A stretch of 64,000 nt of DNA from Eubacteriales bacterium (GCA_045543615.1 JAZPXL010000005.1:68436-132435), one strand, 5' to 3'; counted from the stretch's first letter, positions 2,976 to 49,857 are shown. Translations and numbers: made by a program. Notes: generated from the letters alone by a model not told the origin.

Positions 2976-4223
2976 TTATCTGCGACCACGCTGACGAATG
3001 ATAGCCATAATATCATCAAAGCTATCGCCGGGGGCCTGATTATTACCGGGCTGGTTACGTGTCTGAGGCTGCGCAGGTGCAGGCGCGGGTGCAGGCGCAG
3101 GTGCAGGCGCAGGTGCGGGTGCAGGCGCAGGAGCGGGTGCAGGTGCGGGAGCAGGCGCGGGAGCGGGTGCAGGTGCGGGAGCGGGTCTTGCCGCAGGAGC
3201 AGGACGAGCATTACCGTGAGCCGCAGGGCGAGCAGCGTTTGAGCGTGTAGTCTCAGGCTCGCTTGAGGGGCTATCAAAACCTGTTGCAATGATCGTAATC
3301 TTCATCTCGTCCTCGAGATCGGAGTCGAACGCAACTCCCCAAATTACGTTTGCATCGGGATGAGCTTCTTCAGCAATCATAGTTGATGCGAGATCAGCAT
3401 CCTCAAGTCCTACATCAGGAGACATAGAAATGCTTACAAGAATGCCTGTTGCGCCCTTGATGGAGGTTTCGAGAAGAGGGCTGGAGATAGCTGCCTTTGC
3501 TGCGATCTCTGCCTTGTCCTTACCTGTTGCGCTACCAACGCCCATATGTGCGTAACCTGCGTCACGCATTACGGATGTAACGTCAGCGAAGTCAAGGTTG
3601 ATAAACCCGGGAACATTGATAAGCTCGGAGATGCTCTGTACGCCTCTTCTAAGCACATCATCGGCAATTTCAAATGCATTTTTAAGTGTTATGCGAGTTT
3701 CGGAAACCTGCTTGAGTCTCTCGTTGGGAATAATAACGAGGGAGTCAACATAGTTGCGAAGCTCTTCAATACCCTTTTCAGCCTGGAGCATACGGCGACG
3801 TCCTTCAAAGAGGAAGGGCTTTGTTACAATTGCAACTGTGAGAATATCCATTTCACGAGCAATTCTTGCTACAACGGGAGCTGCGCCTGTTCCGGTGCCA
3901 CCACCCATACCTGTTGCAATAAATACCATATCAGCACCGGCGAGAGCTGCTCTGATTTCCTCAGCATTTTCCTCTGCGGCACGCTGACCGATCTCGGGAT
4001 TAGCACCGGCTCCGTGTCCCTTTGTGATCTTTTCTCCAATCGGAATCTGGTTTGGCGAGTTAGAAGTGCGAAGTGCCTGACGATCGGTGTTGATCGCAAT
4101 AAATTCTACGCCTCTAATATTGGTAGAAATCATTCTGTTTACAGCGTTGTTACCGCCTCCGCCAACACCTACGACCTTTATGCTGACACCACTTTCAAGA
4201 ATATCATCGTGTTCAAATGCCAT
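2976..4223 (-). CDS. ftsZ: cell division GTPase FtsZ
   Basis: 415 aa with the tubulin signature [11 protein letters not shown] and N-terminal [17 protein letters not shown]. Position is at the end of the dcw cluster. AGGAG RBS present. Confidence 0.97.
3068..3210. repeat. imperfect hexanucleotide (GCAGGN) tandem repeat encoding the (Pro-Ala)n C-terminal linker of FtsZ
   Basis: The plus strand reads gcaggtgcaggcgcgggtgcaggc and so on. The translation gives about 20 consecutive PA dipeptides before the conserved C-terminal peptide [16 protein letters not shown]. Confidence 0.85.
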
Positions 4224-7900: not shown

Positions 7901-8905
7901 TTAAAGTCCGAAATAAGCCAATACGCAAGCTATCACGGTGATGGATGTGAACACCGCAACGATTTTTATCTCACTCCAACCACATTTTTCAAAATGGTGG
8001 TGGATGGGAGCCATTTTAAATATTCTCTTGCCGTGCGTCAGCTTGAAGTAACCTACCTGGATAATGTCGGAGGCAACCTCGATAATGTAAATAATTCCGG
8101 CTACAAGAATTATAAGTGGCTCGTTTATGAGGAACGCCATACCAATGACAAGACCACCGATATAGAGCGAACCTGTATCACCCATAAAAATCTTTGCGGG
8201 ATAGAAATTATACATCAGAAAGCCTATTGTTCCACCGATGAGCGTTGCAGGAAGCACAGCAAGATTTGGTGCTTCGTATGCAAATGCCACAACTGCAAAG
8301 AATGCGCCCACAACAGCACTAACGCTACTGCAAAGACCATCGATGCCGTCTGTAAGGTTAACTGCATTTGACATACCTGCTACAAGGAGGATGGCTATTA
8401 CATAGTATACGATGCCAAGCTCGATTTCAATATCGAAATACGGAATTTCAAGCGTTGTATCAATAAATCCACAGCTGCTCATAGCCCATACATAAGCTGC
8501 AGCCACAAGAATTTGAAGAGCAAGCTTCTGCCAAGCCCTAAATCCCTGATTTTGTTTCTTTACGAGCTTTGTGTAATCGTCAAAGAAGCCGATCATCGCA
8601 CAAAGCAGAGCCATTACAAGTGTAAGTGCCGGTGCAAGCAGTTCTTCAAGTCTACCAAAGTAGAGGTAGACGCCACCGAGGGCGAGAAAAGCTACAACAG
8701 TTGAGATGATAAATCCAAGGCCACCCATTATAGGAGTGCCTTCCTTGCCCTTGTGCCAACGAGGGCCTATGTCGTATATCTTTTGACCAAGCTTCTTGCT
8801 CTTCAAATATGGAATGAGACGGCGCAGTATCAGAAATGTCAGAAGAAATACGCCGACTAAAACTGACGCAAACTCAATAAGCATACGACTCTTTAATGGA
8901 TCCAT
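7901..8905 (-). CDS. mraY: phospho-N-acetylmuramoyl-pentapeptide transferase MraY
   Basis: 334 aa with motifs GTPIMGG, NAVNLTDGIDGL and APIHHHFE. Confidence 0.96.
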   Translation of the reverse strand: MDPLKSRMLIEFASVLVGVFLLTFLILRRLIPYLKSKKLGQKIYDIGPRWHKGKEGTPIMGGLGFIISTVVAFLALGGVYLYFGRLEELLAPALTLVMALLCAMIGFFDDYTKLVKKQNQGFRAWQKLALQILVAAAYVWAMSSCGFIDTTLEIPYFDIEIELGIVYYVIAILLVAGMSNAVNLTDGIDGLCSSVSAVVGAFFAVVAFAYEAPNLAVLPATLIGGTIGFLMYNFYPAKIFMGDTGSLYIGGLVIGMAFLINEPLIILVAGIIYIIEVASDIIQVGYFKLTHGKRIFKMAPIHHHFEKCGWSEIKIVAVFTSITVIACVLAYFGL

Positions 8906-28097: not shown

Positions 28098-29312
28098 TTA
28101 GTGTCTCTTCTTGAAAACAATTGCTGTTCCAAGGATTGCGATGAGAGCGATACCTGCTGTTGCAACGGAAGCGCAACCACCGTCTGTGGTGTTGCCTGCG
28201 TCACCACCTGCTGTTGTAGCGTCATCTGCAGGAGCATTTGTTGCGTCGTCAGCAGGAGCCTGTGTTGCGTCATCTGCAGGAGCGTTTGTTTCGTCATCTG
28301 CAGGAGCGTTTGTTGCGTCGTCCTCGGGAGCTGCAGTTGTCTCATCCTCTTCGGGAAGAGTTGTGGGAGCGTCGGTGTAACCGGGAAGGTCAAGGCCGAT
28401 GCCCTTGTAAACTGTAACGTCCTTAAGGCCAAGGTTCATTGTCTCGTTGTAAAGTCTGCCAATGAAAGCAAGATCGTGGGATGTTGCACCGTCTTTTGTT
28501 ACCCATTCAGTGTGATCATAGAATACATCTTCCTGACCCTCGCCAAGACCGAGCTTCCAACCGTTGAAACGGATCTGCATCTTGTAGCCGTCGATCTCAA
28601 CGCAAACGTTGTACCACTGACCTACGCCATCCATAAGGCCGATCTTGAAATCAGCAGAGGTAAGGTCGTCAAGCTTAAGGTTGGAGCTGCCGTCAGCTTC
28701 AATACGATGCCAACGCATAGGTGTCTTGAAAACGGAGTTGCAGGTGTGACCCCACCAGCCGTATGTGCCGAGGTGACCTGTGGGGGAATCGGGAATGGAC
28801 ATAATGGTTCTGCCGTCTTCGTCTGTGCTTACTGCAAGCTCGGATGCTACGCAGAAGTAGAAGCCGGACTGACAGTTGTCAGAGTCCTCGTCATCGAAGA
28901 GAGCCTTGAGTGTGAATGTGTACTGATAGGGGTTGCCGGACTCATCGTAGCCCCACTTGAGACCGTCGATCTTGCCGCCGTAAAGAAGTGTGCCGTAGTC
29001 ATCGCCCTCTTTACCCTGATCGTCATAGAACATATTTACGCTCTTGTTGTCATCAGAAACGGTGATAACGGGTGTGCAGTGGTAGCGAACACCTGTGTGG
29101 ATGGTCTCGTCTGCAGAGTTAGCAAAAACGATGGGCTGATATGCGCCTGTTGTCTGACCGAAGAGAAGCTCGATAAGCTTGTCGCCGTCTTTTGCAGCTT
29201 CGTATGTAGTGAGAAGCTCATTTTCAAAAGCAGCAGATGTGCTTACTGTCATAGGTACGAGCATAGCTACAACCATTGCAAGCACAAGAACGATAGAAAG
29301 TGTCTTTTTCAT
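28098..29312 (-). CDS. secreted protein of unknown function with an acidic octapeptide repeat and a C-terminal membrane anchor
   Basis: 404 aa with a signal peptide (MKKTLSIVLVLAMVVAMLVP...SAAFE), five DDATNAPA-type repeats, then a hydrophobic helix plus KKRH at the C-terminus. No LPXTG or SPXTG motif. Confidence 0.7.
   Translation of the reverse strand: MKKTLSIVLVLAMVVAMLVPMTVSTSAAFENELLTTYEAAKDGDKLIELLFGQTTGAYQPIVFANSADETIHTGVRYHCTPVITVSDDNKSVNMFYDDQGKEGDDYGTLLYGGKIDGLKWGYDESGNPYQYTFTLKALFDDEDSDNCQSGFYFCVASELAVSTDEDGRTIMSIPDSPTGHLGTYGWWGHTCNSVFKTPMRWHRIEADGSSNLKLDDLTSADFKIGLMDGVGQWYNVCVEIDGYKMQIRFNGWKLGLGEGQEDVFYDHTEWVTKDGATSHDLAFIGRLYNETMNLGLKDVTVYKGIGLDLPGYTDAPTTLPEEDETTAAPEDDATNAPADDETNAPADDATQAPADDATNAPADDATTAGGDAGNTTDGGCASVATAGIALIAILGTAIVFKKRH
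28205..28330. repeat. 24-nt tandem repeat (about 5 copies) encoding DDATNAPA units
   Basis: The plus strand repeats gcgtcatctgcaggagc(a/g)tttgtt with small variations. Confidence 0.8.
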
Positions 29313-29516: not shown

Positions 29517-32500
29517 TTAGTCCTCTACTCTGCGCTTCTTGCCAAGCACTGCGCCTACTGTGAGTGCGAGAACTGCGCCACCAATCCAGAGCACAAGTGC
29601 GGAGTTATCGCCTGTGTCGGGAGATGGAGAAGTGTAGGTGTTGGTGAAGACAACTGCCTCGGCATCGAGAATATCTGTGCTTATGATAAGCTCTCCGTTG
29701 CCACCATCAACTGCGCTTACAGTTACTGTGTAAACTGTTGCATCATATGTGATAGCTGCGTCTTCGCCTGCAACCTCGCTTACTGTGTAGGTGTATGTTC
29801 CTGCTTTTTCGATTGCAATAGAACCAAATGCGAAGCTTCCGTCTGCCTTGACGGTTGTAGTCTCAAGCACGTTTCCATCGCTGTCCTTAAGCTCAAAGCT
29901 GAACTCACCGTCAACTATGTCACGGCCAACAAGAACCTTTGTGCCACTGATAACTGCGCTGCTGCTTGAAAGAGCGTAGGTATTGACAAACTCAATCTTC
30001 TCTGCACTCTGCTCGCCCTTTGTAATGACTGCTTTTGCAACGAGTCTGCCCTCGCCGTTATCGCTTACCGTAACACTTACGGTATAAACCGACTCGTCAT
30101 AGCTTACTCCACCAAGAACGCCCTTGATCTCGTTTACCGTGTAGATGTATGTGCCGACCTTGTCAAATGTCAAAGTGGAGAATGCAACCTTTCCGTCAGC
30201 TGTATTCTTGACTGTCTCAACAACATTTCCACTTGCATCCTTAAGCTCAAAGCTGAACTCACCATCTGCAAGCTCACGGCCGCTCAGTGTCTTGTTTGCC
30301 TCAACCTTTACGGAGTCTGCCTCTGCCTTGTATGTGTTTGCAAACACGATATTGTCTGCACCCACTACATTTGCTACGAGCTTTCCGTTCAGGTCATCAA
30401 CTACCGTTACGGTAATTGTATAAACCGACTTGTCGTATGTTACACCACCGAGTGTTTCTTCAAGCTCACTTACAGTATAGGTGTATGTTCCTGCCTCTGT
30501 ATACGTAATGCTGCTAAAGCCGAACTTACCGTCCTTTGCGTTCTTGACCGACTCAATAACAGCACCACTTGCATCCTTAAGCTCAAAGATAAACTCGCCA
30601 TCAGCAAGCTCACGGCCGGAAAGTGTCTTGTTGCCACCAAAGCTTACGCTTGTGGAGTCTGCCTTATACTTGTTTGCAAACTTGATTGCCTGAGCACCCT
30701 CTACACTTGCTATAAGCTTGCCCTCGCCGTTATCGGTGACGACAACCTTAACTGCGTAAACTGTGCCATCGTAGCTTACTCCACCGAGTTCGCCCTTAAC
30801 CTCGCTTACTGTGTAGTTGTATGTGCCTGCCTTGTTGTATGTGATTGTGCTGAATCTGAATGTGCCGTCTGCCTCATTCTTAACAGTTTCAAGCTCCTTG
30901 CCCGACTCATCCTTGAGTACGAACGAGAACTCGCCTGCGACAAGTGCTCTGCCGTCTATCGTCTTTGTACCTGCAAGGCTTGCTGTTGCGCTGTCTGCGC
31001 TGTATGTGTTTCTGAATACTATGCCTGTGTCCCCACTAACGCTTGCTGTAAGCTTGCCGTTCATATCGTCTGTAACGGTTACGGTTACGGTGTAAACGTG
31101 TGTATCGTAAGAAACGCCACCTGCATTTCCGGAAACCTCGCTTACTGTGTATACGTATGTTCCTGCCTCGGTGTAGGTGATGGGACTGAATACGAACTTG
31201 CCGTCAGCCTTGTTCTTTACTGTCTCAAGCTCATTGCCCGATGCGTCCTTGAGTACGAATGAGAACTCGCCATCAAGAAGAACTCTGCCGTCAAGAACCT
31301 TGTTTCCACCAAACTCCGCATCTGTGGACTCTGCCTTATAGCTGTTCGTGAATACGATAGCATCAGCACCCTCCACGCTTGCTACAAGCTTACCCTCGCC
31401 GTTATCGGTAACAACGACCTTGATGGTGTAAGCTGTGCTATCATAAGTAACGCCACCTGCGTTGCCTGCAAGCTCAACAACCTCATAGGTGTATGTACCA
31501 ACGGATGTATAGGTAATAGGCGCGAATGCAAAGCCACCGTTTGAAAGGTTATAAACAGTTTCTATCGTGTTGCCGTCTGCGTCAACAAGTGCAAATCCAA
31601 ACTCGCCGAGAGCGAGAGGTCTGCCGTTAAGCTTCTTGCTTCCGCTGAACTGAACGGTTGTGGAATTTGCCGAATACTTGTTATTGAACTCGACGCTGAG
31701 AGGCGGGATGTTTGCTGTGAGTGTGCCCTCGCCGTCATCTGTAACGGTTATGGTAAGTGTATATACGGTGTCGTCATACTCTACTCCGCCAAGGAAGCCG
31801 GAAACCTCATATATTACATAAGTGTACTCGCCCGGGGCGGTGAATGTAATTGCATCGAATGCAAAGTCTCCGTTTGCTTCATTCTTTACAACGTCAATTA
31901 TCTGACCGTTGGAGTCAATGAGGTTGAACGAGAACTCGCCGGCTTTAAGAAGGCGTCCGTCAAGTACCTTTCTGCCACGGATGGTCGCCTCTGTTGAGGT
32001 TGCTGCGTATGTATTGGTAAAGATGATATTCTCTGCACCGTTTACGTCTGCAACAAGGCTACCCAAGCCATCGTCACTTACAATTACTGTGACTGTGTAA
32101 ACTGTCTCGTCATATCTGATACCACCAACAGTACCCTTTACCTCGTTTACGGTATATACGAATGTACCTGTGGTGTCGAAATCAAGCTCTGTGAACGAGA
32201 AATTTCCAAGTGCGTCATTCTTTACTGTCTCGATTGTATTTCCGTCTGCATCCTTGAGTATGAAGCTGAATTCGCCATCTCTGAGAGGACGGCCAACGAG
32301 AACCTTTTCGCCACTTATATCGGCAGTTGTTCCACTGGGAAGATATGTGTTTGTGAAAACGGGAGCTTCAACGGGAACATTTTCGCTGTTGTAGATATTA
32401 ACAACGGAAACAAGAGATCCCCTTCCGTCATCGCTTACAGTAACCTTTACTCGATATACGGAGTCATCGTATGTGATACCGTTGATTACCTGACCACCGT

Positions 32501-35500
32501 GACTCTCGCTGATGAGGTAGTAATATGTACCTGCATCCACATACTCGATTTCAGAGAATGCGAAGACGCCGTTTGCGTTGTTGGATACATTTTCAATGAG
32601 CGCGCCCTTTGTCCAGGATGCGTCTGAGAGATAGAGGTTAAATCCGAACTCACCGGCTGTGAGCACCTTGCCCTCAAATATCTTCGATCCACCCAAGCTT
32701 TCCTTTGTAGGTGATGGAACATAGGAGTTTACAAACTCGATCTCGTCAACGCCGGATCCACCTTCAATATGCATCTCAACCGTAGATACTACAAGCTGAC
32801 CAAGTCCGTTATCAGCAATAACAACTTCAACGTGATAACGAGTGGTATCGTATGTAATTCCGTAGATCTTGTCTTCATCGGACTCTGCAACGATATAGTA
32901 ATATGTGCCGGCCTCTGTATAGGTAATTGCGGGGAATGCGAAATGACCATCGCTGAAGTTGCGTGCTGTGTATGTCTTAGCACCGTTTGCGATATTGCCT
33001 GCGCTGTCGGATTCTGTGAGAGTGAATACAAACTCATCGTTGAGAAGTACTCTGCCATCAAGAACCTTGCTTCCTCCGATAGAATAATCTACCGAGGATG
33101 CATTATATGTATTGTTGAACTCGATTACATTGTTTGCTACATTGAGTACGCTGTATGTAGCGACAAGCTTTCCACCGTTATCGGTAACCGTTACAGTTAC
33201 ACGGCGAACGCTCTTGTCAGTAGTAACACCGTTTGCATCTGCAGAAGTCTCAACTATATCGTAATAGTATGCGCCAACCTTGTCAAATGTAAGTGCCTTG
33301 TCAAATGTAACCTTGCCCTGAGCATTGTTTTTGCCGGTTGCAACCAAAGCTCTCGTGTCTCTCTCACGGATCTCGAATGTAAACTCACCATCACGGAGAG
33401 GTCTGCCCGAAAGGTTCTTTCTTACATCAAGTGCAAGTGTGGCCTCTGCGGGAGCGTATGTGTTCTCAAATGTTACGCTTGTCTGCGAGCTTGCTCCATC
33501 GGGTTTTGTTGTTCCGATGTATGCGTATGCTACAAGATAACCATTGTTGCTGTCAACAACCTCAACTGTTACTGCATACTCTGCACTTGAGTAGCTCCAG
33601 CCATCTGCAGTTGCAGCAGGAACGATTTCCTTGAGAACATAAGCGTATGTGCCCGCCTCTGTGTAGGTCATATTGAATCTGGTAAAGCCACGCTCAGTGG
33701 TCTTATCAGATGTTGCAACAAGGTTGCCGTCTGCATCGTAAAGGCCGAATGTAAAGCCTGCCAGAGTTGCCAGAGGGCTTGCGCTGTTGTTTACAACACT
33801 CTTGTTGATTTCAATGGAAGCTGTTGTTGAAGCTGCGTCATAAGTATTTGTGAAGTCTGCATCAACCGACCAATTGCCGTTGCCGTCCTGTGTAACGTGA
33901 ACTGTGTCACGGTATGCAACAACATCTGCAATCTCAAGCTTGCCGTCGAGGTCACTGTCACCGATAATTACGCCGAATGCGTGAACTGTTGTATCATAAT
34001 CCATACCACCCTGAGTACCTGCATTCTCTTTGATGCGATAGTAATATGTGCCTGTGGTGGTGTAGATCTCATTTGCAAGTGCGCTACCAAAGTCAAATAC
34101 ACGGTCAGCATCACTTCCGTTTACGCCTGCAGTTCCGAGAGCCTTCCAGCTACCAGTTGCTGCGTCATATCTCTCAAGAACGAATGTAAAGCTGTCGGAG
34201 GATACCCACTCACGTCCGATGAGGTACTTTGTTCCTGATACCTTGACGGATGCAGATGTAAGCTCTTCGGGTGTGTAGTAGTTGCCGATGATTACCGAAA
34301 CAACATTGTCCTTGAGGATTGTAACCTTACCGTCACCTGCAATACCGTTGTCATAGTAACCTGCGACAAATCCGTCTCCGGGGTTCTTCTCTACTACGGT
34401 AGCCTCAGTTCCCTCAGGAAGACCGAAGATCTCGAAGCTCTCATCGTGACCGAGGAGAACAACTACCTCGCCGTTTGCGTTAACTGTAACTGATGTAACG
34501 CTTGCGTCGCCCTTGTGCTTAGCCTCAAAGCTCTTGCCCTTAACGCCAACACCGTCAAGTGTGATGGTGATCTCAAACTTCTTGTCTGCGGGAATTACGA
34601 AATCTGTGCCGAAGGAATGAGCAATTTCCTTGGTTACTGTGAGGTCGCCCTCTCCACGTGCTGTGTTTACAAAGTTTACTCTGGAAAGCGTCTGATTCTG
34701 AAGAACCACCTCAGCTCCACTTACGGATGTTGTTCCGTTGATGGAGGAAACGATATAGTACTCGCTCTCAGTCTCGTCGATGGAGTATCTTGTACCTGCG
34801 GCAAGACCTGTGATGTAAGCGGACTCGCCGTCCTTAAGGTTAACAACTGCGCTGCCACCTGTAAATGTTACTGTGCTCTTTGTAACGTTTGCGTCTGCAT
34901 CTACGTGGTAGTAGGTGTATGTGCCATTGTCAGCAGGGTTTGTGAGGTTTGTAACTGTAAACTCAAAGGAAGTGTTTGCACCGGATGTTGTGTTTACAAC
35001 ATCAATTTCCTTTGTGATCTTGATTCCCGTTGCGGGAACAACTGTAATTCTACCGTTGTTGCCGTGTGTTGCACCTACGATGTAGGAATACTCAGCGTCA
35101 ACAAATGGCTCGTATGCGTATTTGAGAGATTCGGTTTTGTTCTCTGCCTTGAGGATTTCAAAATCCTCAATGAGAGTGTGGACAGTTCCTGCGGGAACAT
35201 ACCAGTTGCCGTTTGAGCCACTCTGCGCCTTTGCAAGCGATTTAGAAGAGATTCTCTCATATACAACTGTTGTTCTCAGCGGATTGTCTGCGTATGTCTT
35301 TATTGCTCGGTAGTATGTTCCCGATGCCAAGGGAGCAGACGTGCCGGAATAAAGAGTGCCGTTTGTGTCTGTGTAGATAAGCGAATCGGTTGTGTAATAG
35401 TATCTGTCGTTTTCGGTAGCAGGTCTGAAGTAAGAATATGTATTCTTTTCGTTGTAAACGATCTCGTTCTGCCACTTGTTTGTATAAAAATCGTAAGAGC

Positions 35501-37562
35501 CGTCTGCGTTGATGTATTCGTAATTATCGCCAACAATACTCTCAACTGTAACCTCGTTGATCTCGCTGTCAAGCGCAACCTCATACACAAGTCTGATGGG
35601 GTGGTTAGCACCACTTACTGCAAGGCTTGTAAGAGAGCCGTTTTCGTCAAGCTCAACCTCGTATGTTACTGTGGGAATAAGGGATGCGGGAACTGAGAAA
35701 TGGAGGCTTACGCTACCTGTTGCAATCTCCTCGGATACACGGATGCTTGCATACATCATATCACTTGCTGTAACGCCGTGGTCCTCATCAACTGCGCCAA
35801 GATAGCCGTAAGATTTGTAAATATATGCAGGTCTTGTTGCGTCTGTGAGTGTGGGATCGGAGGGATCGGGCATTGTGGTGATGCCCTCGTGCCAGAAGCC
35901 GAGGAACTCGCCGGCTGCATTTGCGTACCAACCGATATAGTTGCTGTACTCGCCTGTGGAGGCATTGTAGGAAATCTGTCCCTCTGCAAACGCAAGGCTT
36001 GCAAGAGTTCTTGCTTCATCTGCGCTGATGCCGAGTCTGGCACCGATTGCCGCAATCATTGTTGTTCCGAGAGCGGTGGGGTTGTCGGGAGTGCCGAGAG
36101 CGCCGCCTGATGTTACGAAATTACTTGCAAGAGTTGCTCCTGAGTAGAGCGTGTTATTGATGAGAAGTCCCTTGATATCTACTACATCCATATAGTAGCC
36201 AATCTCGTCCTCAAAGGTTACCCATCCCGAGAGATGCTCATTGGTCTCAACGAGAGTCGGGAAATAACGGGACTGAAGCTGAATTGTACCAACGATCTCG
36301 TCAAATGCAGATTCAAGCTCAGCACCGGGGTTTGAGGAGGCAGTGTCAGCCTCAAAGTAGCCGTCTACATAATTCTTATCAAGTGCAAGATCAATCTTCT
36401 CTACATTATAATATGTAACTCTGAAGCCGTTTCTTTCTGTGTGAACGGTAACATCGTCGCCAACTTCTGCTGCATTGTAATTTGTCCAAAGCTCAGAGAT
36501 AGCCGAGCTCGAGTTCGAGGGGTTTACAACGCTTGTTGCGATGCTGTCATTTGAAACGCCGAGTCCAAGTGTATAAAGGAGAGCCGAACCATAAACCTCG
36601 GTCATCTTTGCCTTTACGTACGCTATTGAGAGCTGGCTGAGGAAGCCTGTTGCTGCAGTTGCAGTGCTACCGTTACCGAGATTGTTGTCACCGGGGTTTG
36701 TAAAGCTTGTGGTTGCGAGTGTGGGAGCACCGTCTGTCATAAGAACCATAACGGGCACACGGTCAAGAACGCCGAGAACGGGGTCTGTAACCTTTGTGTC
36801 GCCAAGCTGATCCATAAACTCTTCCATAGCACCGACAACACCCCTCTGGATGTATGTTGCGCCATATACCTGCTTGGATGCGCTTTGGGGTGCTCTGCCT
36901 GTCTCTTCATTTACTACGTCAGAGTCAATGGAAACTGTCTCTACACTTCTATCTCCATAACCCGTCTTGCTGTAAGAGAGGTACTCACCATCGCTACCTG
37001 TGGTATATCTGCCAAGAGGAAGCAGGGTCAAAGCTGCGTCTGAGTTATTCGTGCTTGAAGAGCCTGAATAAAGAATAACGCCTACACGGTTGTACTTTCC
37101 ACTCTCAAGAAGTGTTTTGATGCTGGAGTTTGCTGCATCAACCATTTCATCGGAAAGAGCGTTGTTACCTTCTCTTGAATTCATCGAGCCTGAAACGTCA
37201 AGCACGAGCATTGTGTCTGTGGGAACATAGGACATACCTGCAACTGCAATATTTGATGCAATAGCAGAAAGAGCAACGAGGAAGCTGTCATCACGTTGCA
37301 TTGTGATGCCTGTTCCACCAAACGCCGATGCATTTGTGAATACGGACTTATCCGTCCATACACCACCTGCGTTTTCTGTGCTCAGATGTGTAGGACCGAA
37401 AAGATCCTTCCAACCATCCATTGTGGAGAGGTCAGCAACTCTGCTGTCCTCGTCTGCTGCAAGTGCAGTGGTAAATGTAATTGCTGTAAGAGGAACAAGT
37501 CCAATTACCAACATTACCGAGAGCAAGATGCTTAAAGCTTTTTTACCAATAGTTCTTATCAT
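29517..37562 (-). CDS. giant cell-wall-anchored adhesin: signal peptide, vWA (MIDAS) domain, about 13 tandem Spy0128/FctA-type isopeptide pilin-like domains, SPDTG sorting signal
   Basis: I take ATG 37562 as the start (GGAGG 7 nt upstream, MIRTIGKKALSILL signal), giving 2681 aa. MIDAS motif in VLDVSGSMN. Recurring K-x-L-x-GR-x-L-x-x-GEF-x-F-x-L ... Y-x-V/I-x-E ... F-x-N-x-Y modules. C-terminus is SPDTG (29610-29624) plus a hydrophobic helix plus KKRR. Confidence 0.9.
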   Translation of the reverse strand: MIRTIGKKALSILLSVMLVIGLVPLTAITFTTALAADEDSRVADLSTMDGWKDLFGPTHLSTENAGGVWTDKSVFTNASAFGGTGITMQRDDSFLVALSAIASNIAVAGMSYVPTDTMLVLDVSGSMNSREGNNALSDEMVDAANSSIKTLLESGKYNRVGVILYSGSSSTNNSDAALTLLPLGRYTTGSDGEYLSYSKTGYGDRSVETVSIDSDVVNEETGRAPQSASKQVYGATYIQRGVVGAMEEFMDQLGDTKVTDPVLGVLDRVPVMVLMTDGAPTLATTSFTNPGDNNLGNGSTATAATGFLSQLSIAYVKAKMTEVYGSALLYTLGLGVSNDSIATSVVNPSNSSSAISELWTNYNAAEVGDDVTVHTERNGFRVTYYNVEKIDLALDKNYVDGYFEADTASSNPGAELESAFDEIVGTIQLQSRYFPTLVETNEHLSGWVTFEDEIGYYMDVVDIKGLLINNTLYSGATLASNFVTSGGALGTPDNPTALGTTMIAAIGARLGISADEARTLASLAFAEGQISYNASTGEYSNYIGWYANAAGEFLGFWHEGITTMPDPSDPTLTDATRPAYIYKSYGYLGAVDEDHGVTASDMMYASIRVSEEIATGSVSLHFSVPASLIPTVTYEVELDENGSLTSLAVSGANHPIRLVYEVALDSEINEVTVESIVGDNYEYINADGSYDFYTNKWQNEIVYNEKNTYSYFRPATENDRYYYTTDSLIYTDTNGTLYSGTSAPLASGTYYRAIKTYADNPLRTTVVYERISSKSLAKAQSGSNGNWYVPAGTVHTLIEDFEILKAENKTESLKYAYEPFVDAEYSYIVGATHGNNGRITVVPATGIKITKEIDVVNTTSGANTSFEFTVTNLTNPADNGTYTYYHVDADANVTKSTVTFTGGSAVVNLKDGESAYITGLAAGTRYSIDETESEYYIVSSINGTTSVSGAEVVLQNQTLSRVNFVNTARGEGDLTVTKEIAHSFGTDFVIPADKKFEITITLDGVGVKGKSFEAKHKGDASVTSVTVNANGEVVVLLGHDESFEIFGLPEGTEATVVEKNPGDGFVAGYYDNGIAGDGKVTILKDNVVSVIIGNYYTPEELTSASVKVSGTKYLIGREWVSSDSFTFVLERYDAATGSWKALGTAGVNGSDADRVFDFGSALANEIYTTTGTYYYRIKENAGTQGGMDYDTTVHAFGVIIGDSDLDGKLEIADVVAYRDTVHVTQDGNGNWSVDADFTNTYDAASTTASIEINKSVVNNSASPLATLAGFTFGLYDADGNLVATSDKTTERGFTRFNMTYTEAGTYAYVLKEIVPAATADGWSYSSAEYAVTVEVVDSNNGYLVAYAYIGTTKPDGASSQTSVTFENTYAPAEATLALDVRKNLSGRPLRDGEFTFEIRERDTRALVATGKNNAQGKVTFDKALTFDKVGAYYYDIVETSADANGVTTDKSVRRVTVTVTDNGGKLVATYSVLNVANNVIEFNNTYNASSVDYSIGGSKVLDGRVLLNDEFVFTLTESDSAGNIANGAKTYTARNFSDGHFAFPAITYTEAGTYYYIVAESDEDKIYGITYDTTRYHVEVVIADNGLGQLVVSTVEMHIEGGSGVDEIEFVNSYVPSPTKESLGGSKIFEGKVLTAGEFGFNLYLSDASWTKGALIENVSNNANGVFAFSEIEYVDAGTYYYLISESHGGQVINGITYDDSVYRVKVTVSDDGRGSLVSVVNIYNSENVPVEAPVFTNTYLPSGTTADISGEKVLVGRPLRDGEFSFILKDADGNTIETVKNDALGNFSFTELDFDTTGTFVYTVNEVKGTVGGIRYDETVYTVTVIVSDDGLGSLVADVNGAENIIFTNTYAATSTEATIRGRKVLDGRLLKAGEFSFNLIDSNGQIIDVVKNEANGDFAFDAITFTAPGEYTYVIYEVSGFLGGVEYDDTVYTLTITVTDDGEGTLTANIPPLSVEFNNKYSANSTTVQFSGSKKLNGRPLALGEFGFALVDADGNTIETVYNLSNGGFAFAPITYTSVGTYTYEVVELAGNAGGVTYDSTAYTIKVVVTDNGEGKLVASVEGADAIVFTNSYKAESTDAEFGGNKVLDGRVLLDGEFSFVLKDASGNELETVKNKADGKFVFSPITYTEAGTYVYTVSEVSGNAGGVSYDTHVYTVTVTVTDDMNGKLTASVSGDTGIVFRNTYSADSATASLAGTKTIDGRALVAGEFSFVLKDESGKELETVKNEADGTFRFSTITYNKAGTYNYTVSEVKGELGGVSYDGTVYAVKVVVTDNGEGKLIASVEGAQAIKFANKYKADSTSVSFGGNKTLSGRELADGEFIFELKDASGAVIESVKNAKDGKFGFSSITYTEAGTYTYTVSELEETLGGVTYDKSVYTITVTVVDDLNGKLVANVVGADNIVFANTYKAEADSVKVEANKTLSGRELADGEFSFELKDASGNVVETVKNTADGKVAFSTLTFDKVGTYIYTVNEIKGVLGGVSYDESVYTVSVTVSDNGEGRLVAKAVITKGEQSAEKIEFVNTYALSSSSAVISGTKVLVGRDIVDGEFSFELKDSDGNVLETTTVKADGSFAFGSIAIEKAGTYTYTVSEVAGEDAAITYDATVYTVTVSAVDGGNGELIISTDILDAEAVVFTNTYTSPSPDTGDNSALVLWIGGAVLALTVGAVLGKKRRVED
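29650..34250. repeat. about 13 diverged tandem coding repeats (about 336-375 nt each) inside the adhesin gene
   Basis: The antisense ORF track shows recurring MYVPA/MYVPT peptides at 29791, 30145, 30481 and 30817 (336-354 nt spacing). The same GTY-Y-Y codon block recurs at about 31150, 31490, 31822, 32152, 32520, 32897, 33260, 33640 and 34040. Confidence 0.8.
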
Positions 37563-37588
37563 ATCTGTACCTCCATTGAATCTCTTGC

Positions 37589-37891
37589 TTAATTTTTTTG
37601 CGTGCGTGTCTGGTCGTGTATGCACACTCCGATAAGATCACCCTCTTTTTCGCGCAACATATATTTGCACGAGCCGCAATCAAGACAGCGTCCCTGCCCA
37701 TCCTTGTCAGTCGCATATTGACAAGAATCGGTAAAAACATTAACCCATCTCAATCCGCCGGGGGTGAATCTTGGAGCTTCATCAAAGTCCGGATACTCTC
37801 CGAAATATTTGCCAAGCTTCTCGTTGTATATGAATCTAACTTTACATTCATCTCCATCGAGAACAAAACTGCGAACGATCATTGGTTTCAC
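37589..37891 (-). CDS. small Cys-rich protein of unknown function, co-transcribed with the adhesin
   Basis: 100 aa with a GTG start and AAGGAG 7 nt upstream. Cys pattern is C-x11-C-x2-C-x2-C (CQYATDKDGQGRCLDCGSC). It ends 26 nt before the adhesin start. Its own TTTACT-17-TATAAT promoter is just upstream. Confidence 0.6.
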   Translation of the reverse strand: MKPMIVRSFVLDGDECKVRFIYNEKLGKYFGEYPDFDEAPRFTPGGLRWVNVFTDSCQYATDKDGQGRCLDCGSCKYMLREKEGDLIGVCIHDQTRTQKN

Positions 37892-41413: not shown

Positions 41414-42271
41414 ATGAAAAACCGCACACTTCTTCGCTTCTTCATTCTGACCTTAGCGTTGCTTATGACACTTTCGGCATTCGTTGCTTGTGATCCTCCT
41501 GTTGAAACCCCCGATGATACCACAGCCGCTGACAACACAACCGAGGGTGGCGACGTAACAACTGCGGGTGGCGATGACGTAACAACTGCTGCACCCGATG
41601 ACGTTACAACTGCTGCACCCGACGATGTTACAACTGCAGGCAGCGGCGAGGAGAAACATATTCACGTTTACACAAACAACAAGTGCTCTTGTGGTGTCAG
41701 TGGCTTTGCTACCACAAACAATGCATTCGGTCTTACAAATATGACAGAGAAGGCATCCTCTTTTGACGGCGACGGAGACGGAGTCAACGACAAGTTCTAC
41801 TTCGCTCCTGCACTTGCAGATAAGTTCTCTGCTGATAGCGCAATCAAGTTCGAGTCGGGACGCTTCACCGCCGACTCCAAGTCCCCCTCCAGCAACACAA
41901 ACAGCTACGAAGGACTTCCCCACTTCTACATTACAGAAAAGACCGACCAGACTCTCGTTTACACCTTCTCCGTTGAGGAAGAGGGCGTTTACGATCTCGC
42001 TATCCATCTCAGACTCAAGGACACAAAGGAGCGTGGCAACAAGTTCACAGTAAATCCCGGAACAGATTCTGCTTACACCTTTGAAACCTCCTTCAAGCCT
42101 GCTGATGATACTGAGATTTCTGCTATGAAGTCAACCGACGGCAAGGATTCCACATATATGTACGGTATGCAGATCTATCTCAATAAGGGACAGAACACCA
42201 TTCTTATTGAAGCATCAACAACCGAAAAGTGCCAGCATTACAGACATTTCTATCTCGCAAAGGCTGAGTAA
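41414..42271 (+). CDS. lipoprotein with a D/T/A/P-rich linker and a CBM6/35-like beta-sandwich C-terminal domain
   Basis: Lipobox LSAFVAC. DDVTTAAP repeats. C-terminal GVYDLAIHLRLKD...IYLNKGQNTILIEAS resembles carbohydrate-binding modules. Confidence 0.6.
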   Translation: MKNRTLLRFFILTLALLMTLSAFVACDPPVETPDDTTAADNTTEGGDVTTAGGDDVTTAAPDDVTTAAPDDVTTAGSGEEKHIHVYTNNKCSCGVSGFATTNNAFGLTNMTEKASSFDGDGDGVNDKFYFAPALADKFSADSAIKFESGRFTADSKSPSSNTNSYEGLPHFYITEKTDQTLVYTFSVEEEGVYDLAIHLRLKDTKERGNKFTVNPGTDSAYTFETSFKPADDTEISAMKSTDGKDSTYMYGMQIYLNKGQNTILIEASTTEKCQHYRHFYLAKAE

Positions 42272-45524: not shown

Positions 45525-45564
45525 AAAAAGCAGTCCGGGACACGCCTACGGCGTGTCCCGGACT
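45525..45564 (-). terminator. rho-independent terminator after the 139-aa lipoprotein gene
   Basis: 15-bp stem agtccgggacacgcc / ggcgtgtcccggact with a U-run on the minus strand. Its apex is identical to hairpin H1 of the ladder at 48096-48110. Confidence 0.75.
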
Positions 45565-47154: not shown

Positions 47155-47216
47155 AACGGCCTCCTTGTTTAGTTTTAAATTAAGTTCAAAGTTTGAATGG
47201 ATTAAACTGCATACTC

Positions 47217-47270
47217 ATTATACCATAAGTTTGTGAACATTTCAAGTGCGGCGGTTCGAATCTGTCTACA
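47217..47270 (-). promoter_or_regulatory. promoter cassette copy A (consensus sigma-A promoter plus conserved 25-nt upstream block)
   Basis: Minus strand reads TTGAAA (47245-47240), 17 nt, TGgTATAAT (-10 at 47222-47217). 48 of 54 nt are identical to copy B at 48003-48056. Confidence 0.6.
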
Positions 47271-47321
47271 TGCCCGAAATGCCCGAAATGCATCTACAAA
47301 ATTTTGAAAAACTTTAGAGTC

Positions 47322-47355
47322 AGAAAAATTGCCCCATCTGCAGAGCAGATGGGGC
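47322..47355 (-). terminator. rho-independent terminator about 200 nt downstream of 47559..47975
   Basis: gccccatctgc-aga-gcagatggggc, followed on the minus strand by aatttttc. Confidence 0.6.
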
Positions 47356-47401
47356 GGGAGAAATCTCTCGAAATCTCCGCTTTTCTCGTTTTTTCGTGCC
47401 T

Positions 47402-47449
47402 GCATCTAAATCAGACACTCATCATGTGTCGTATGTCCGATTTAGATGC
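47402..47449. other. nested hairpin (11-bp outer stem enclosing a 5-bp inner hairpin) in the 3' UTR / intergenic region
   Basis: The outer stem gcatctaaatc (47402-47412) pairs with gatttagatgc (47439-47449). The inner hairpin gacac-tcatcat-gtgtc is at 47414-47430. Confidence 0.5.
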
Positions 47450-47558
47450 ACGCTGTTTTTACAGAGGGTACACTAACCCACGGGCGTGTATGGGAGTTGC
47501 ACTTAACCGCTATCTTCCGGGGCGCAACGCCATGCTTGCAAACGAGTCCTATGTATCC

Positions 47559-47975
47559 TTAAAAAATATCGTGTTTTCCTTCCATTGCAAACAAATTACC
47601 AAAAGTAACCTTTTTGAAAAGACCGACTTTATAAGGCTCACCAACAATAACAGAATAATCGTCTTTGTGTTCCAAGCTTACAATAATCGCGTCGGTGGGT
47701 TTGCCATCTGCGGAAACTATACCCGCATTCCAAACGATACCGCTGGCTTTGATTTTATCTTCGGCAGCCAGTTGCTTGTGTATCTGTATCAAGTCAGCAA
47801 GAACGTCTTTTGATTCGGGATGTTCGTTACCGCCATAGCTGCCGGTCAATTCTACGGAATCATCCATAAGAATAACGGTGGCAAACGGGTAGAATTCGCG
47901 ATACTTTTTCATTTGATCTTCTGCAAACGGGAGTAATTTATCTAACAATACTTCACATTGTTCCTTGGGGGTCAT
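47559..47975 (-). CDS. cytoplasmic protein of unknown function
   Basis: 138 aa with ATG and AAGGAGG RBS. No signal peptide and no motif I recognise. Confidence 0.65.
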   Translation of the reverse strand: MTPKEQCEVLLDKLLPFAEDQMKKYREFYPFATVILMDDSVELTGSYGGNEHPESKDVLADLIQIHKQLAAEDKIKASGIVWNAGIVSADGKPTDAIIVSLEHKDDYSVIVGEPYKVGLFKKVTFGNLFAMEGKHDIF

Positions 47976-48002
47976 AGTAGTTATCCTCCTTGTTTTTTAT
48001 TT

Positions 48003-48056
48003 ATTATACCACAATTTTGTAAGCATTTCAAGTGTGGCGGTTCGAATCTGTATACA
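48003..48056 (-). promoter_or_regulatory. promoter cassette copy B
   Basis: Minus strand reads TTGAAA (48031-48026), 17 nt, TGgTATAAT (-10 at 48008-48003). It has the same upstream block CAGATTCGAACCGCC as copy A. Confidence 0.6.
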
Positions 48057-48073
48057 GGCTCAAAATGGTCGAC

Positions 48074-48346
48074 ATGCGCACCTCCGCATTTCAATCACGC
48101 CGTAGGCGTGTATGAAATCAAGGCGAAGCCTTGTATGGAATCCGCAACTTGTTGCGGGATGGAATCATCACGAAGTGATGTATGGAATCACGGCAACGCC
48201 GTGTATGGCATCAATCCGAAGGAGGAATGCACGCTTTGCGTGATGCTATACGCCCTTTGGGCGATTACATACTCACCTGTGGTGAGATTACATACCAATC
48301 CTTCGGATTGGATAAAACTCCGATGCGAAAGCATCGGAGTTTTGGC
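48074..48346. repeat. ladder of 11-12 short GC hairpins at about 23-nt period joined by a conserved 8-nt linker (TATGGAAT or its complement); candidate structured ncRNA or DNA element, function unknown
   Basis: Hairpins are at 48074-89, 48096-110, 48119-133, 48142-157, 48166-180, 48189-203, 48212-229, 48230-242, 48251-263, 48272-286, 48295-311 and 48318-339. My reading of this stretch reproduces the two spurious plus-strand ORF translations in the track exactly. Confidence 0.7.
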
Positions 48347-48404
48347 GGCGAATGCGAACCGACGCATTTGCTTGCAAATGCTCGGCGATTCTTGCATCCC
48401 GGCC

Positions 48405-48440
48405 AAAAACAGGGGCAACCCGAAGGTTGCCCCTGTTTTT
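48405..48440 (-). terminator. bidirectional rho-independent terminator immediately after tRNA-Gln
   Basis: aaaaacaggggcaacc-cgaa-ggttgcccctgttttt. It overlaps the terminal A of the tRNA CCA. Confidence 0.8.
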
Positions 48441-48514
48441 GGCTGGGATGGCCGGATTCGGACCGACGAATGCGGGAGTCAAAGTCCCGTGCCTTACCGC
48501 TTGGCTACATCCCA
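48440..48514 (-). tRNA. tRNA-Gln (anticodon UUG) with encoded CCA
   Basis: Reverse complement is TGGGATG TA GCCAAGCGGTAAGGC A CGGGA CTTTGAC TCCCG CATTC GTCGG TCCGAAT CCGGC CATCCCA G CCA. The cloverleaf pairs throughout and is very close to Bacillus tRNA-Gln as I remember it. The T-loop has C where U55 is expected. Confidence 0.85.
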
Positions 48515-48522
48515 ATATTATC

Positions 48523-48550
48523 CCTCTCAAGCGTTTTTGCGCTTGAGAGG
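48523..48550. other. 11-bp hairpin between the DUF3048 gene and tRNA-Gln
   Basis: cctctcaagcg-tttttg-cgcttgagagg. The U-run is only on the plus strand, so on the minus strand it is more likely a processing or attenuating structure than a terminator. Confidence 0.45.
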
Positions 48551-48579
48551 TTATTTGTTTTTTGTTCGTTTTTATGTGC

Positions 48580-49857
48580 TCAACCCAAGCGATAGTTGAG
48601 AACTACCGATGCTGTATCCTTGAGATTTGCATTCACCACAGAAATAAACGTCTTTCCTCTGTTTACAAACAGCGGCACTCCGTTATCCGTTGTGAAATAG
48701 AACATTGAAGAGTCAGACGTTCTGGTCCACTTGATTGGTGTATACTTTCCACCGTTTATGTAATAACCGTCACCTGTGCCCGTTACGCTTACGTCAAGTC
48801 TGCCCTCTGTGTCTCCTGCAATATTCTTTGTATTAGCAAAGAGCACAAATACATTCTCATAGCAGAGCTGTTCGCCGTTTTCTGCATCAAGATGTGGTTG
48901 GTCACCGTACTGATAACGGTAATACTTTCCTGTGGATGAGCTATATACCATCTGTATCTGCTGATATGCCGAATACTTAAGTATAACGTGTGCAGCAGAG
49001 CCACCTGCAAGTGTTATGGGGCTGTCCTCGGGTGCAAAGTTGAATGCATCTGCAGAGTCTGTCGTAAGGTTGAACTTATTAAGCTCAGCAAGCTTGAGTA
49101 TTCCCTTGCCTGTGATCATAAGCGAATGCTCATATCCACTATTCTTGAATCTGTCAGCGTCACGGTAGAAACCCTGAAGTGCGTATCTGTCGTGTGTACC
49201 GTTGATATAATCTGCGCCAAGCTTGGTTATCAGCTCATAGCCCTGTGGACTATAACCTGCGCCGACCATAAGTGATCCGAAAGCCTGCGACAGACTTACC
49301 ATATAAGGTCTTGTTGAACGGATAGGGCCGTAGGACTCAAGTCCTCCAAACTCGTTATCAGCTCCATACTTATTGGTTATACCAATGAGTCTTGATATAC
49401 CACCCTCAACCATACATTCTATGAGAATATCTGCTCTTGATATTCCACTCTGAGGGGACGCCGCAGAGAGATTATCAAAAACTATGGAAACGGGGCGAAC
49501 CTTTGAAACATCAACTACTGTTTTAAGTCCTGTCAGCGGATCGTGATAGATCGCCACCACAGGCTCCGTTGTTTCGTCGCCATCATCGGGTGCTTTCGTG
49601 GTGTCTTCCGGGATAATACCACCCGTCTGATCGTCATCATCAACAGTTGTTGTGACATCGCCCTCGCCCGTTGTATCATCGGGCACAGGCGCAGTTGTTA
49701 CATCACCGTCAGGTGTGCGCTCAGTCGTGCTCTCCTCGGTTGTCACTTCACCGACAACACCAAACAGGTCACAACCAACGAGGCTGATTATCATCAAAGC
49801 CACCATAAGCACAAGAAGCACTCGAATGGGAGCAAGAGTGTTTTTTGTCTCTTTCAT
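48580..49857 (-). CDS. DUF3048 (YerB-like) lipoprotein
   Basis: 425 aa with lipobox LVGC, a D/T-rich linker, then PVSIVFDNLSAASPQSGISRADILIECMVEGGISRL, typical of DUF3048. Confidence 0.75.
   Translation of the reverse strand: MKETKNTLAPIRVLLVLMVALMIISLVGCDLFGVVGEVTTEESTTERTPDGDVTTAPVPDDTTGEGDVTTTVDDDDQTGGIIPEDTTKAPDDGDETTEPVVAIYHDPLTGLKTVVDVSKVRPVSIVFDNLSAASPQSGISRADILIECMVEGGISRLIGITNKYGADNEFGGLESYGPIRSTRPYMVSLSQAFGSLMVGAGYSPQGYELITKLGADYINGTHDRYALQGFYRDADRFKNSGYEHSLMITGKGILKLAELNKFNLTTDSADAFNFAPEDSPITLAGGSAAHVILKYSAYQQIQMVYSSSTGKYYRYQYGDQPHLDAENGEQLCYENVFVLFANTKNIAGDTEGRLDVSVTGTGDGYYINGGKYTPIKWTRTSDSSMFYFTTDNGVPLFVNRGKTFISVVNANLKDTASVVLNYRLG

Follow-up and report, generated by a model that had tools for sequence, protein, structure and literature searches.

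In a 64,000-nt stretch of DNA from an Eubacteriales bacterium (GCA_045543615.1, JAZPXL010000005.1:68436-132435; hereafter the window), the minus strand carries, in this order, a tRNA-Gln gene, its terminator, a second and bidirectional terminator hairpin, an array of short hairpins to which we refer as the ladder, a promoter, and a gene for a 138-aa protein. The tRNA-Gln (UUG) gene (48440..48514, minus strand; ARAGORN, and 61.8 bits with the Rfam tRNA model) constitutes the upstream transcription unit and is terminated by a long hairpin at 48395..48450, whose 26-nt arms, 96% complementary, contain the 3' end of the tRNA together with its inverted copy. The second hairpin, AAAACTCCGATGC-GAAA-GCATCGGAGTTTT at 48314..48343, has the appearance of a bidirectional intrinsic terminator with a 13-bp A-tract/stem/T-tract and abuts the ladder; an initial annotation of the locus gave it as a 9-bp hairpin plus TTTT at 48318-48346. 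A small hairpin, ATGCG-N6-CGCAT (48074..48090), lies between the ladder and the promoter. The latter (48003..48031, minus strand) is a near-consensus extended -10 promoter with TTGAAA, a 17-nt spacer containing TG, and TATAAT (11/12), is kept in homologous loci, and precedes the 138-aa gene at 47559..47975 (minus strand). Profile searches against Pfam, NCBIfam, PHROGs and PDB gave no match for the 138-aa protein, and an exact-sequence look-up found the window's own version not to be on record. The present analysis shows that pairing within the ladder is maintained while its sequence turns over, that the ladder has sharp borders and recurs in different contexts, and that it is a hotspot where sequence changes are restricted to the interiors of the hairpins.

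The ladder is a strand-symmetric array, and we name its halves in the gene sense, i.e., in the orientation of the downstream minus-strand gene. Direct reading of the plus strand places the left hairpins, with 6-bp stems, at 48096-48110 (H9), 48119-48133 (H8), 48142-48157 (H7), 48166-48180 (H6) and 48189-48203 (H5), and the right hairpins at 48230-48242 (H4), 48251-48263 (H3), 48272-48286 (H2) and 48295-48311 (H1), at the positions given in the initial annotation. The gene-sense 5' half (48230..48311; reading and hairpin scan) thus comprises H1 to H4, and the 3' half (48088..48211) H5 to H9. Ten hairpins, GC-rich and perfect, are counted in the array at a spacing of 21-24 nt. On the plus strand the left 8-nt linkers read TATGAAAT (48111), TATGGAAT (48134), GATGGAAT (48158), TATGGAAT (48181) and TATGGCAT (48204), and the right ones ATGCTATA (48243), ATTACATA (48264) and ATTACATA (48287). 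On the minus strand those of the 5' half are TATGTAAT (48287-48294), TATGTAAT (48264-48271) and TATAGCAT (48243-48250), followed in the 3' half by ATGCCATA (48204), ATTCCATA (48181), ATTCCATC (48158), ATTCCATA (48134) and ATTTCATA (48111). The linker core is really 10 nt long, the conserved block being G-TATGGAAT-C. In their linkers the two halves are inverted copies of each other, as had been proposed. Between them lies an 18-nt centre element (48212..48229, both strands), previously counted as a sixth unit; it is better read as a centre, since 48212-48223 is a perfect 12-nt inverted repeat of 48299-48310, which comprises an arm and the loop of H1. This inverted repeat closes the 5' half as a domain. 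An open reading frame (ORF) of 213 codons that is mechanically called on the plus strand (47958-48599) passes through the whole ladder and the terminators, overlaps the oppositely oriented tRNA gene, and is most likely an artefact of composition; the 23-nt period of the ladder is not a multiple of 3.

When the 64-kb window is scanned for perfect hairpins, just two clusters of in-phase hairpins emerge, with 6 and 5 members; they are adjacent and both lie in this array, as compared with a largest cluster of 4 in 30 shuffles of the window. The fold z-scores are -6.9 for the plus and -8.3 for the minus strand, and 0/200 shuffles folded as well, so that both kinds of shuffled control bear out the order perceived initially. 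The exact linker 8-mer is by itself not significant (4 copies against 2 expected); the order resides in the phasing of the hairpins and not in the exact 8-mer count. Pairing of the linkers of the two halves would zip the array into a stack of four-way junctions, as the initial annotation suggested, and the pairing counts that it gave for the imperfect rungs of the window are reproduced (8/8 including one G-T, then 7/8, then 6/8). In L097, the best-preserved relative (linkers TATGTAAT/ATTACATA; loci are designated by L and a number), the nested four-way-junction ladder is the minimum-free-energy (MFE) structure for both strands and with both RNA and DNA parameters. In the window, its energy is -71.0 kcal/mol, as compared to -67.1 kcal/mol for the hairpins alone and -89.3 kcal/mol for the MFE structure, which with DNA parameters employs a helix between the first hairpin and the centre. 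The calculations thus make the linker ladder a plausible fold, one that is the MFE in L097 and only marginally better than the hairpins alone in the window.

Homologues of the 138-aa gene were retrieved from public assemblies, and the loci examined, of at most 20 kb, came from genome, metagenome and viral collections. About 25 related ladders were found, in metagenome-assembled genomes and metagenome contigs, and their hosts are all uncultured Oscillospiraceae, 'Eubacteriales' or Clostridia of the animal and human gut. The order terminator, ladder, promoter, gene is found in all of them except the truncated L074. The ladder starts at most 15 nt (in most cases at most 9 nt) from the T-tract of a bidirectional intrinsic terminator, the exception again being L074, which has no terminator; this preceding terminator often follows a tRNA gene. 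The distance from ladder to promoter ranges from 0 to about 300 nt across loci, and in L097 and L060 the last hairpin provides the -35. Many homologues of the 138-aa gene have a ladder of the same architecture upstream, with a different linker. The 138-aa gene is found in many contexts, synteny showing that the ladders are not specific to it, and it is one of several unrelated genes downstream of ladders. The others are 23S_rRNA_IVP-type genes (L052, L061, L070), a NUDIX-like gene (L077), a 76-aa gene (L060), a gene for a signal-peptide protein (L097) and a 292-aa gene (L206). The 23S_rRNA_IVP genes, of the four-helix-bundle (Avd-like) kind, lie directly after the ladder, at 283-642 in L052, from about 225 on in L061 and from about 960 on in L070. 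Two ladders are present in one contig in L052, L060, L061 and L062, and the same ladder type recurs in different contexts in different genomes. At the ladder position of L055, L065, L086 and L090 there is instead a long inverted repeat that consists of 7-nt units in tandem, in variable number, and has hardly any side hairpins or none.

A blastn search of the window array against phage and plasmid collections gave no match. In viral contigs, the pattern of three ATGGAATC copies retrieved acidic coding repeats only, and that of three ATTACATA copies AT-rich simple tandem repeats only, apart from L097; linker patterns are not specific without a hairpin test.

In every ladder type, the linker of the 5' half is the reverse complement of that of the 3' half. 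The pairs (5'/3') are TATGTAAT/ATTCCATA in the window, TATGTAAT/ATTACATA in L097, TATATCAT/ATGATATA in L060, L051 and L057, GTGAAAT/ATTTCAC in L052, L062, L216 and L070, GTGATAT/ATATCAC in L053, L054 and L056, ATGAAGC/GCTTCAT in L061, GAAATC/GATTTC in L058, L059, L077 and L084, and ATGATG/CATCAT in L206-L211 and L073. When the 7-mer complementarity of 5' and 3' halves is scored for 13 x 13 arrays, the diagonal and the blocks of related arrays reach 8-27 in 12/13, L065 having a diagonal score of 4 that is no better than shuffles; most cells that combine unrelated types score 0-2, and shuffles average about 0.5. Each array has its own complementarity between the halves.

Unit for unit, the ladders of the window, L097 and L060 are homologues, and their linkers shift in concert, the change from TATGTAAT/ATTCCATA in the window to TATATCAT/ATGATATA in L060 involving two compensatory positions. 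H1, H6, H7 and H8 are still recognisable between the window and L060. Among the homologous ladders one arm of H1 is CCAATCC or CCAAGCC, the other arm having changed to match, an arm of H6 is CATCAC, CAACAC or CAAAAC, likewise compensated, and H7 (CCGCAAcaagTTGCGG) is kept among the window, L097 and L060. There is a second long-range pairing, in which the ladder's initial 9-14 nt match, as a reverse complement, the centre element at a distance of 85-105 nt. This helix between first hairpin and centre is present in every hairpin-bearing type with a different sequence in each, and in L070 (GTGAAAT type) the first hairpin and the centre are altered together in a compensatory manner. The view that structure is kept rather than sequence is supported, pairing being maintained while the sequence changes. 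Three features go beyond what had been recognised before: the first-hairpin/centre helix, the tie to a terminator, and the membership of a dispersed hypervariable family.

The turnover is seen most directly in close pairs of contigs. Between the strains L206 and L208, no difference is found over 8,000 nt on the upstream and 5,600 nt on the downstream side of the ladder, whereas 29/196 aligned ladder positions differ. These differences all lie in hairpin interiors or in the centre, with linkers and terminator unchanged; the second allele is common to five contigs. That 29/196 ladder positions differ while 13.6 kb of flanking sequence is unchanged suggests that the hairpins fold often in vivo and undergo templated change there. 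For L218 and L216, the count is 2 differences in 74 nt of ladder, as against none over 3,500 nt of flanking sequence. Conversely, the GTGAAAT-type 5' half is 97-99% identical among L052, L062 and L216, whereas the gene adjoining the ladder is only 79% identical between L216 and L052/L062 and the flanks align poorly (36-64%). The ladder is thus a discrete unit subject to movement or recombination, and its hairpin interiors turn over much faster than the surroundings. Exchange on the scale of hairpins is also visible: one 20-nt hairpin is common to L206 and L053, whose linkers differ, and single hairpins have been exchanged between identical linkers in L053 and L054. The 15-mer of H9 (CACGCCGTAGGCGTG) recurs, inverted, as the tip of a terminator at 45541; this terminator (45527-45560, minus strand) follows a 139-aa gene, and the chance expectation of such a match is about 1e-4 for the window. 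A simple quasi-palindrome correction, in which one arm is perfected from the other, was considered and fails to reproduce the allele differences between L206 and L207. In L207 and L209, a precisely inserted island separates the tRNA 3' end (..CAAC) from the terminator before the ladder (L207 1-8700 as compared to L206/L208), the downstream sequence being otherwise identical; the island has genes for BrxL (BREX), a large serine recombinase and a Fic protein. The ladder allele is independent of this island.

The composition of the hairpins bears on whether DNA or RNA is the folding strand. Among 75 hairpins of 17 arrays a single stem has a G-T pair, the rest being Watson-Crick, as compared to about 9% G-U on the gene strand of module X, a 3'-untranslated-region (3'-UTR) element of the same loci described below. 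The loops of 105 distinct ladder hairpins are of 3 nt in 57% and closed by C-G in 74%; the commonest is GAA (28/105), followed by AAA, GCA and GTAA, whereas terminator hairpins of the same loci prefer 4-nt loops and have no GAA bias. The dominant ladder loops are of the C-GNA-G kind, a motif that gives unusually stable DNA mini-hairpins. The ladder folds equally well on both strands and is situated past a strong terminator. A promoter scan of both strands finds no promoter-like site that leads into the array, the sole site being that of the downstream gene, and inspection by eye for an antisense promoter reveals nothing conserved in L052, L060, L077, L097 and L206. The scarcity of G-T pairs, the type of triloop and the lack of an inward promoter favour DNA folding on both strands, and a stand-alone transcript, as considered in the initial annotation, is not indicated. 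RNA may arise by read-through or from an unrecognised promoter. A universal functional strand was also considered and rejected: purine-rich loops switch strand between the halves, and their relation to linker orientation is opposite in two ladder groups. The idea that A-N-GGA motifs in the linkers are bound by CsrA does not hold either, because the GGA motif is not conserved across ladders, those of the same architecture carrying the GGA-less linkers GTGAAAT, GTGATAT, ATGAAGC, TATATCAT and GAAATC; ladder loops are mostly GAA/TTC.

Comparison with known systems supports the earlier statement that the array fits neither CRISPR nor REP/BIME, iterons or attC, as at least one defining feature of each is missing. 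Protein domains were sought by Pfam scans of 30 ORFs of the window, among them all long ORFs up to 8 kb from the array. CRISPR arrays are defined by identical direct repeats of about 23-50 nt and unique, non-palindromic spacers of similar length, usually with cas genes. In the ladder, by contrast, the conserved block is 8-10 nt, the variable part is a palindrome of 13-17 nt, and the orientation flips in mid-array; the scans detect no cas domains in the neighbouring genes. Iterons are near-identical direct repeats of 17-22 bp in fixed helical phase with a cognate Rep gene, whereas the ladder conserves only 8-10 nt, has a variable period, and is found in chromosomal surroundings (dcw cluster, spoIIIA, alaS, ackA) with no Rep gene. 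The attC sites of integrons share with the ladder conservation as a folded single strand rather than as sequence, a place at cassette borders, and inverted core-like boxes. However, an attC site consists of one imperfect hairpin bearing R''/L''-L'/R' boxes and extrahelical bases, located downstream of promoter-less cassettes and served by the IntI integrase, while the ladder has several hairpins with perfect stems and lies upstream of genes with their own promoter; no integrase was found among the scanned ORFs. The repeats of ToxI-like type III toxin-antitoxin systems are identical tandem repeats of about 34-45 nt, with a promoter upstream, followed by a terminator and then the toxin gene, whereas ladder units are not identical, the promoter stands between array and gene, and the terminator is upstream of the array.

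TIGR (tandem interspaced guide RNA) arrays consist of alternating edge and loop repeats or of palindromic stems, with two 8-12-nt spacers flanked by box C/D motifs (PMC12045711). Their stem-loop variant (PMC12045711) resembles the ladder in having short conserved repeats, variable segments, and palindromes that vary in sequence and are always palindromic; both lack overall sequence conservation, and in both the array meets a terminator. In TIGR arrays, however, there are two guide spacers with box C/D, beside a Tas gene with a Nop domain, whereas the 23-nt ladder unit consists of an 8-nt linker and a self-complementary hairpin without spacers. No Nop domain appears in the 30 scanned ORFs, and box C/D motifs, when looked for in the ladder, proved to be only chance products of hairpin ends. 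Clusters of hairpins have also been proposed as intrinsic termination signals (PMC8355165); like the ladder, these group several hairpins between operons and downstream of a transcription unit, but the concept involves no conserved linker, inverted halves or covariation, and the ladder is preceded by a canonical strong terminator. At the RNA level, only tRNA-Gln passes in Rfam; over 48074-48346 the best scores are AgrB with 16.9 bits (gathering 40) and SNORD50 with 15.3 bits (gathering 42), and MicX (28.8 bits, gathering 75) merely clips the end hairpin from 48311, in agreement with the prior impression that no known RNA family applies. Literature searches for tandem hairpin or stem-loop arrays did not turn up an element of this kind.

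The closest analogues in behaviour are clusters of REP (repetitive extragenic palindromic) sequences and BIMEs (bacterial interspersed mosaic elements), together with bacterial MITEs (miniature inverted-repeat transposable elements), with the pattern reversed. REP/BIME/REPIN sequences are likewise non-coding and intergenic, usually past terminators between co-directional genes, dispersed, present in many copies and lineage-specific, and they combine palindromic units in both orientations with linker motifs. In REP/BIME, however, the palindrome is conserved and the linkers vary, while the ladder does the reverse; REP orientation alternates per unit, whereas that of the ladder flips once, at the centre; and the hypervariable hairpin interiors have no REP counterpart. 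Hairpin sequences differ between units and between ladders. In the 64-kb window, 9/10 ladder hairpin sequences are single-copy outside coding sequence, H9 recurring once (within the terminator mentioned above) and H4 having a second copy at 14179 in a gene. No RAYT gene was seen in the window or in the loci of 20 kb or less. The bacterial MITEs (Correia, RUP, BOX, bcr1, ERIC) share with the ladder a small size, lack of coding capacity, terminal inverted symmetry, a strong predicted fold and sharp borders, several contigs carry two ladders, and terminal inverted repeats are indeed present, as the outermost linkers and in several types also as flanking GCTTTTT/AAAAAGC. Ladder copies, however, differ by rewritten hairpin interiors and not by scattered substitutions, their periodic units of 21-25 nt are unlike any described MITE, and their position after a terminator and their orientation are fixed. 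We place the ladder among the dispersed intergenic palindromic repeats, with a real but unproven chance of something more distinctive.

On this basis we tentatively favour the reading that the ladder is a dispersed, lineage-restricted, strand-symmetric, non-coding DNA module that is constrained by single-strand folding and evolves by templated palindrome copying. The modules are about 170-250 bp long and are built, as nested inverted repeats, of short GC-rich perfect palindromes, AT-rich linkers of 5-10 nt, and the first-hairpin/centre inverted repeat of 9-14 nt. The mode of action would be the folding of single-stranded DNA rather than a dedicated RNA or a protein-binding array: upon opening of the duplex, at a replication fork or by negative supercoiling behind the strong downstream promoter, either strand could snap into a branched rod. 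We infer that such folding takes place in vivo and that the ladder evolves through templated copying within and between hairpins. As a guess, any role that it has may be to delimit or insulate self-contained expression cassettes at their 5' edge, which would fit its fixed place between a terminator and a strong promoter. Several observations weigh against the folding module. Ladders are absent at equivalent positions in many relatives (L063, L064, L081) and truncated in L051, in the second ladder of L060 and in L074; they are therefore dispensable. The rungs of the window are mismatched, with the explicit ladder barely favoured over the hairpins alone, and the linker-linker and first-hairpin/centre pairings, although both conserved, are mutually exclusive. 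Stems of 5-7 bp by themselves extrude cruciforms poorly. Flanking terminators are also perfect palindromes, so the lack of G-T pairs may reflect fast turnover or use of RNA from both strands, and the ladder may be transcribed by read-through or in antisense.

The most serious of the alternatives, though in our estimate an unlikely one, is a selfish non-autonomous mobile element of the MITE/REPIN/PATE kind that inserts in one orientation at terminator T-tracts and has no host function, perhaps as single-stranded DNA via a hairpin-recognising enzyme, with the inverted linker repeats as its two ends. It would account for the sharp borders, for a module better conserved than its flanks and neighbouring gene, for the recurrence of one ladder type over contexts and genomes and of several types per contig (L052, L060, L061, L062), for the outermost linkers as terminal inverted repeats, for a left border that is always a T-tract plus C/G, or TTAT, and for the truncated copies. 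However, the borders of all types, read at filled sites only, show no consistent direct repeat that would mark a target-site duplication, and no transposase, HUH or RAYT gene is present in the window or adjoining the ladders. Unlike diverging MITEs, copies of one type differ mainly in the hairpin interiors, homologous ladders retain hairpins yet switch all linkers in concert, and the orientation to terminator and gene is fixed. Rather unlikely, too, is a structured RNA, either a read-through multi-hairpin acting as fail-safe terminator or occlusion shield, or an antisense four-way-junction RNA that would end at the adjoining bidirectional terminator. The strong z-scores on both strands, the four-way-junction MFE of L097, the covariation of linkers and long-range helix, and the proposal of hairpin clusters as termination signals (PMC8355165) are in line with it. 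Opposed to it are the lack of a promoter-like site into the array on either strand and by eye in relatives, the location past the U-tract of a strong terminator, the near absence of G-U pairs in comparison with module X, the DNA-favoured C-GNA-G triloops, the U-tracts missing from most hairpins, and the absence of an Rfam match.

A more exotic design is doubtful: a constant-linker array whose palindromic inserts are actively rewritten, or a four-way-junction switch between the two exclusive folds, either with a partner enzyme encoded elsewhere. A recombination site, at which the 9-14-bp inverted repeat inverts the 5' half as a phase switch or the linkers serve as crossover or arm-type sites by tRNA genes, appears improbable. 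Inverted repeats do bracket a segment of 85-105 nt in all types, ladders border shuffled cassettes and often stand beside tRNA genes, single hairpins are swapped in L053/L054, and the serine-recombinase island of L207 is inserted just upstream of one ladder. Yet no flipped 5' half occurs among about 25 contigs, each type has a different sequence at the putative sites, and recombinase genes show no consistent linkage to ladders; nor does the array allele depend on the L207 island, and the bracketed segment contains no promoter. We give hardly any weight to a duplex protein-binding array, iteron- or centromere-like, with the palindromes as incidental spacers; a short motif at about two helical turns, in two opposite sets beside a promoter, would suit it, but even closely related ladders differ in the motif, the period ranges between 21 and 27 bp and so does not preserve helical phasing, the spacers are consistently perfect palindromes whose sequences are unrelated, and no Rep, Par or regulator gene is linked. 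Mimicry of -35/-10 elements by the linkers was also examined: TGTGAAATAT of L052 resembles its own cTTGAAATAT, but this is not so across types.

In the ladders, the usual logic of intergenic repeats is inverted: what is conserved is the pairing, while the palindromes are free in sequence and the linkers evolve together. They offer a natural system for palindrome-driven mutagenesis, branched cruciforms and stacks of four-way junctions, may reveal how cassettes are insulated in abundant but uncultured gut Firmicutes, and could be used as a marker that distinguishes strains sensitively. Should a partner enzyme or a transcript come to light, the family could represent a new class of mobile element or of RNA.

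The wider surroundings are those of an ordinary Firmicutes chromosome, with the dcw cluster, the spoIIIA operon, alaS, ackA, tmcAL and a DUF3048 lipoprotein, and a variable gene island lies downstream of tRNA-Gln. The tRNA terminator hairpin (48395-48450) is lengthened by an inverted copy of the 3' acceptor strand of the tRNA (CATCCCAGCCA...TGGCCGGGATG), which gives the 3' end of the tRNA a pairing partner across the terminator; in L196, at about 8070-8150, a different tRNA is followed by the same arrangement. The promoter belongs to a module (...GTAGATGCATTTCGGG...ACAGATTCGAACCnnCnnAC-TTGAAAtgtt.acaaa.ttgtGGTATAAT) that is common to different genes and is present twice on the minus strand of the window, at 47987-48077 and 47215-47330, preceding the 138-aa and 344-aa genes. 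L053, L059, L062 and L081 have 2-3 tandem copies of it, and in some loci degenerate duplicates lie upstream of the real promoter.

Module X is about 100 nt long (47457-47555 in the window, minus strand), is present in 31 copies in loci L048-L095, and begins a few nucleotides past the stop codon of many unrelated cassette genes; its sequence includes TACATAGG...GCAAGCATGGCG...CCAAGGGG.... Changes in its helix are compensatory (GTTGCAC/GTGCAAC as compared to GTTAAAAG/CTTTTAAC), and it matches no Rfam family; from its sequence it looks like an undescribed structured RNA of the 3'-UTR. Between module X and the next terminator lies a long conserved hairpin, GCATCTAAATCrGACAC...GTGTCTGATTTAGATGC (47401-47450, minus strand), with an equivalent in many loci. 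Elsewhere in the window, a surface protein of 2702 aa (29517-37625, minus strand) contains 13 FctA/Spy0128-type isopeptide domains and is therefore pilin- or adhesin-like, and coding tandem repeats are present at 3071-3182, 28214-28331 and 41552-41642.

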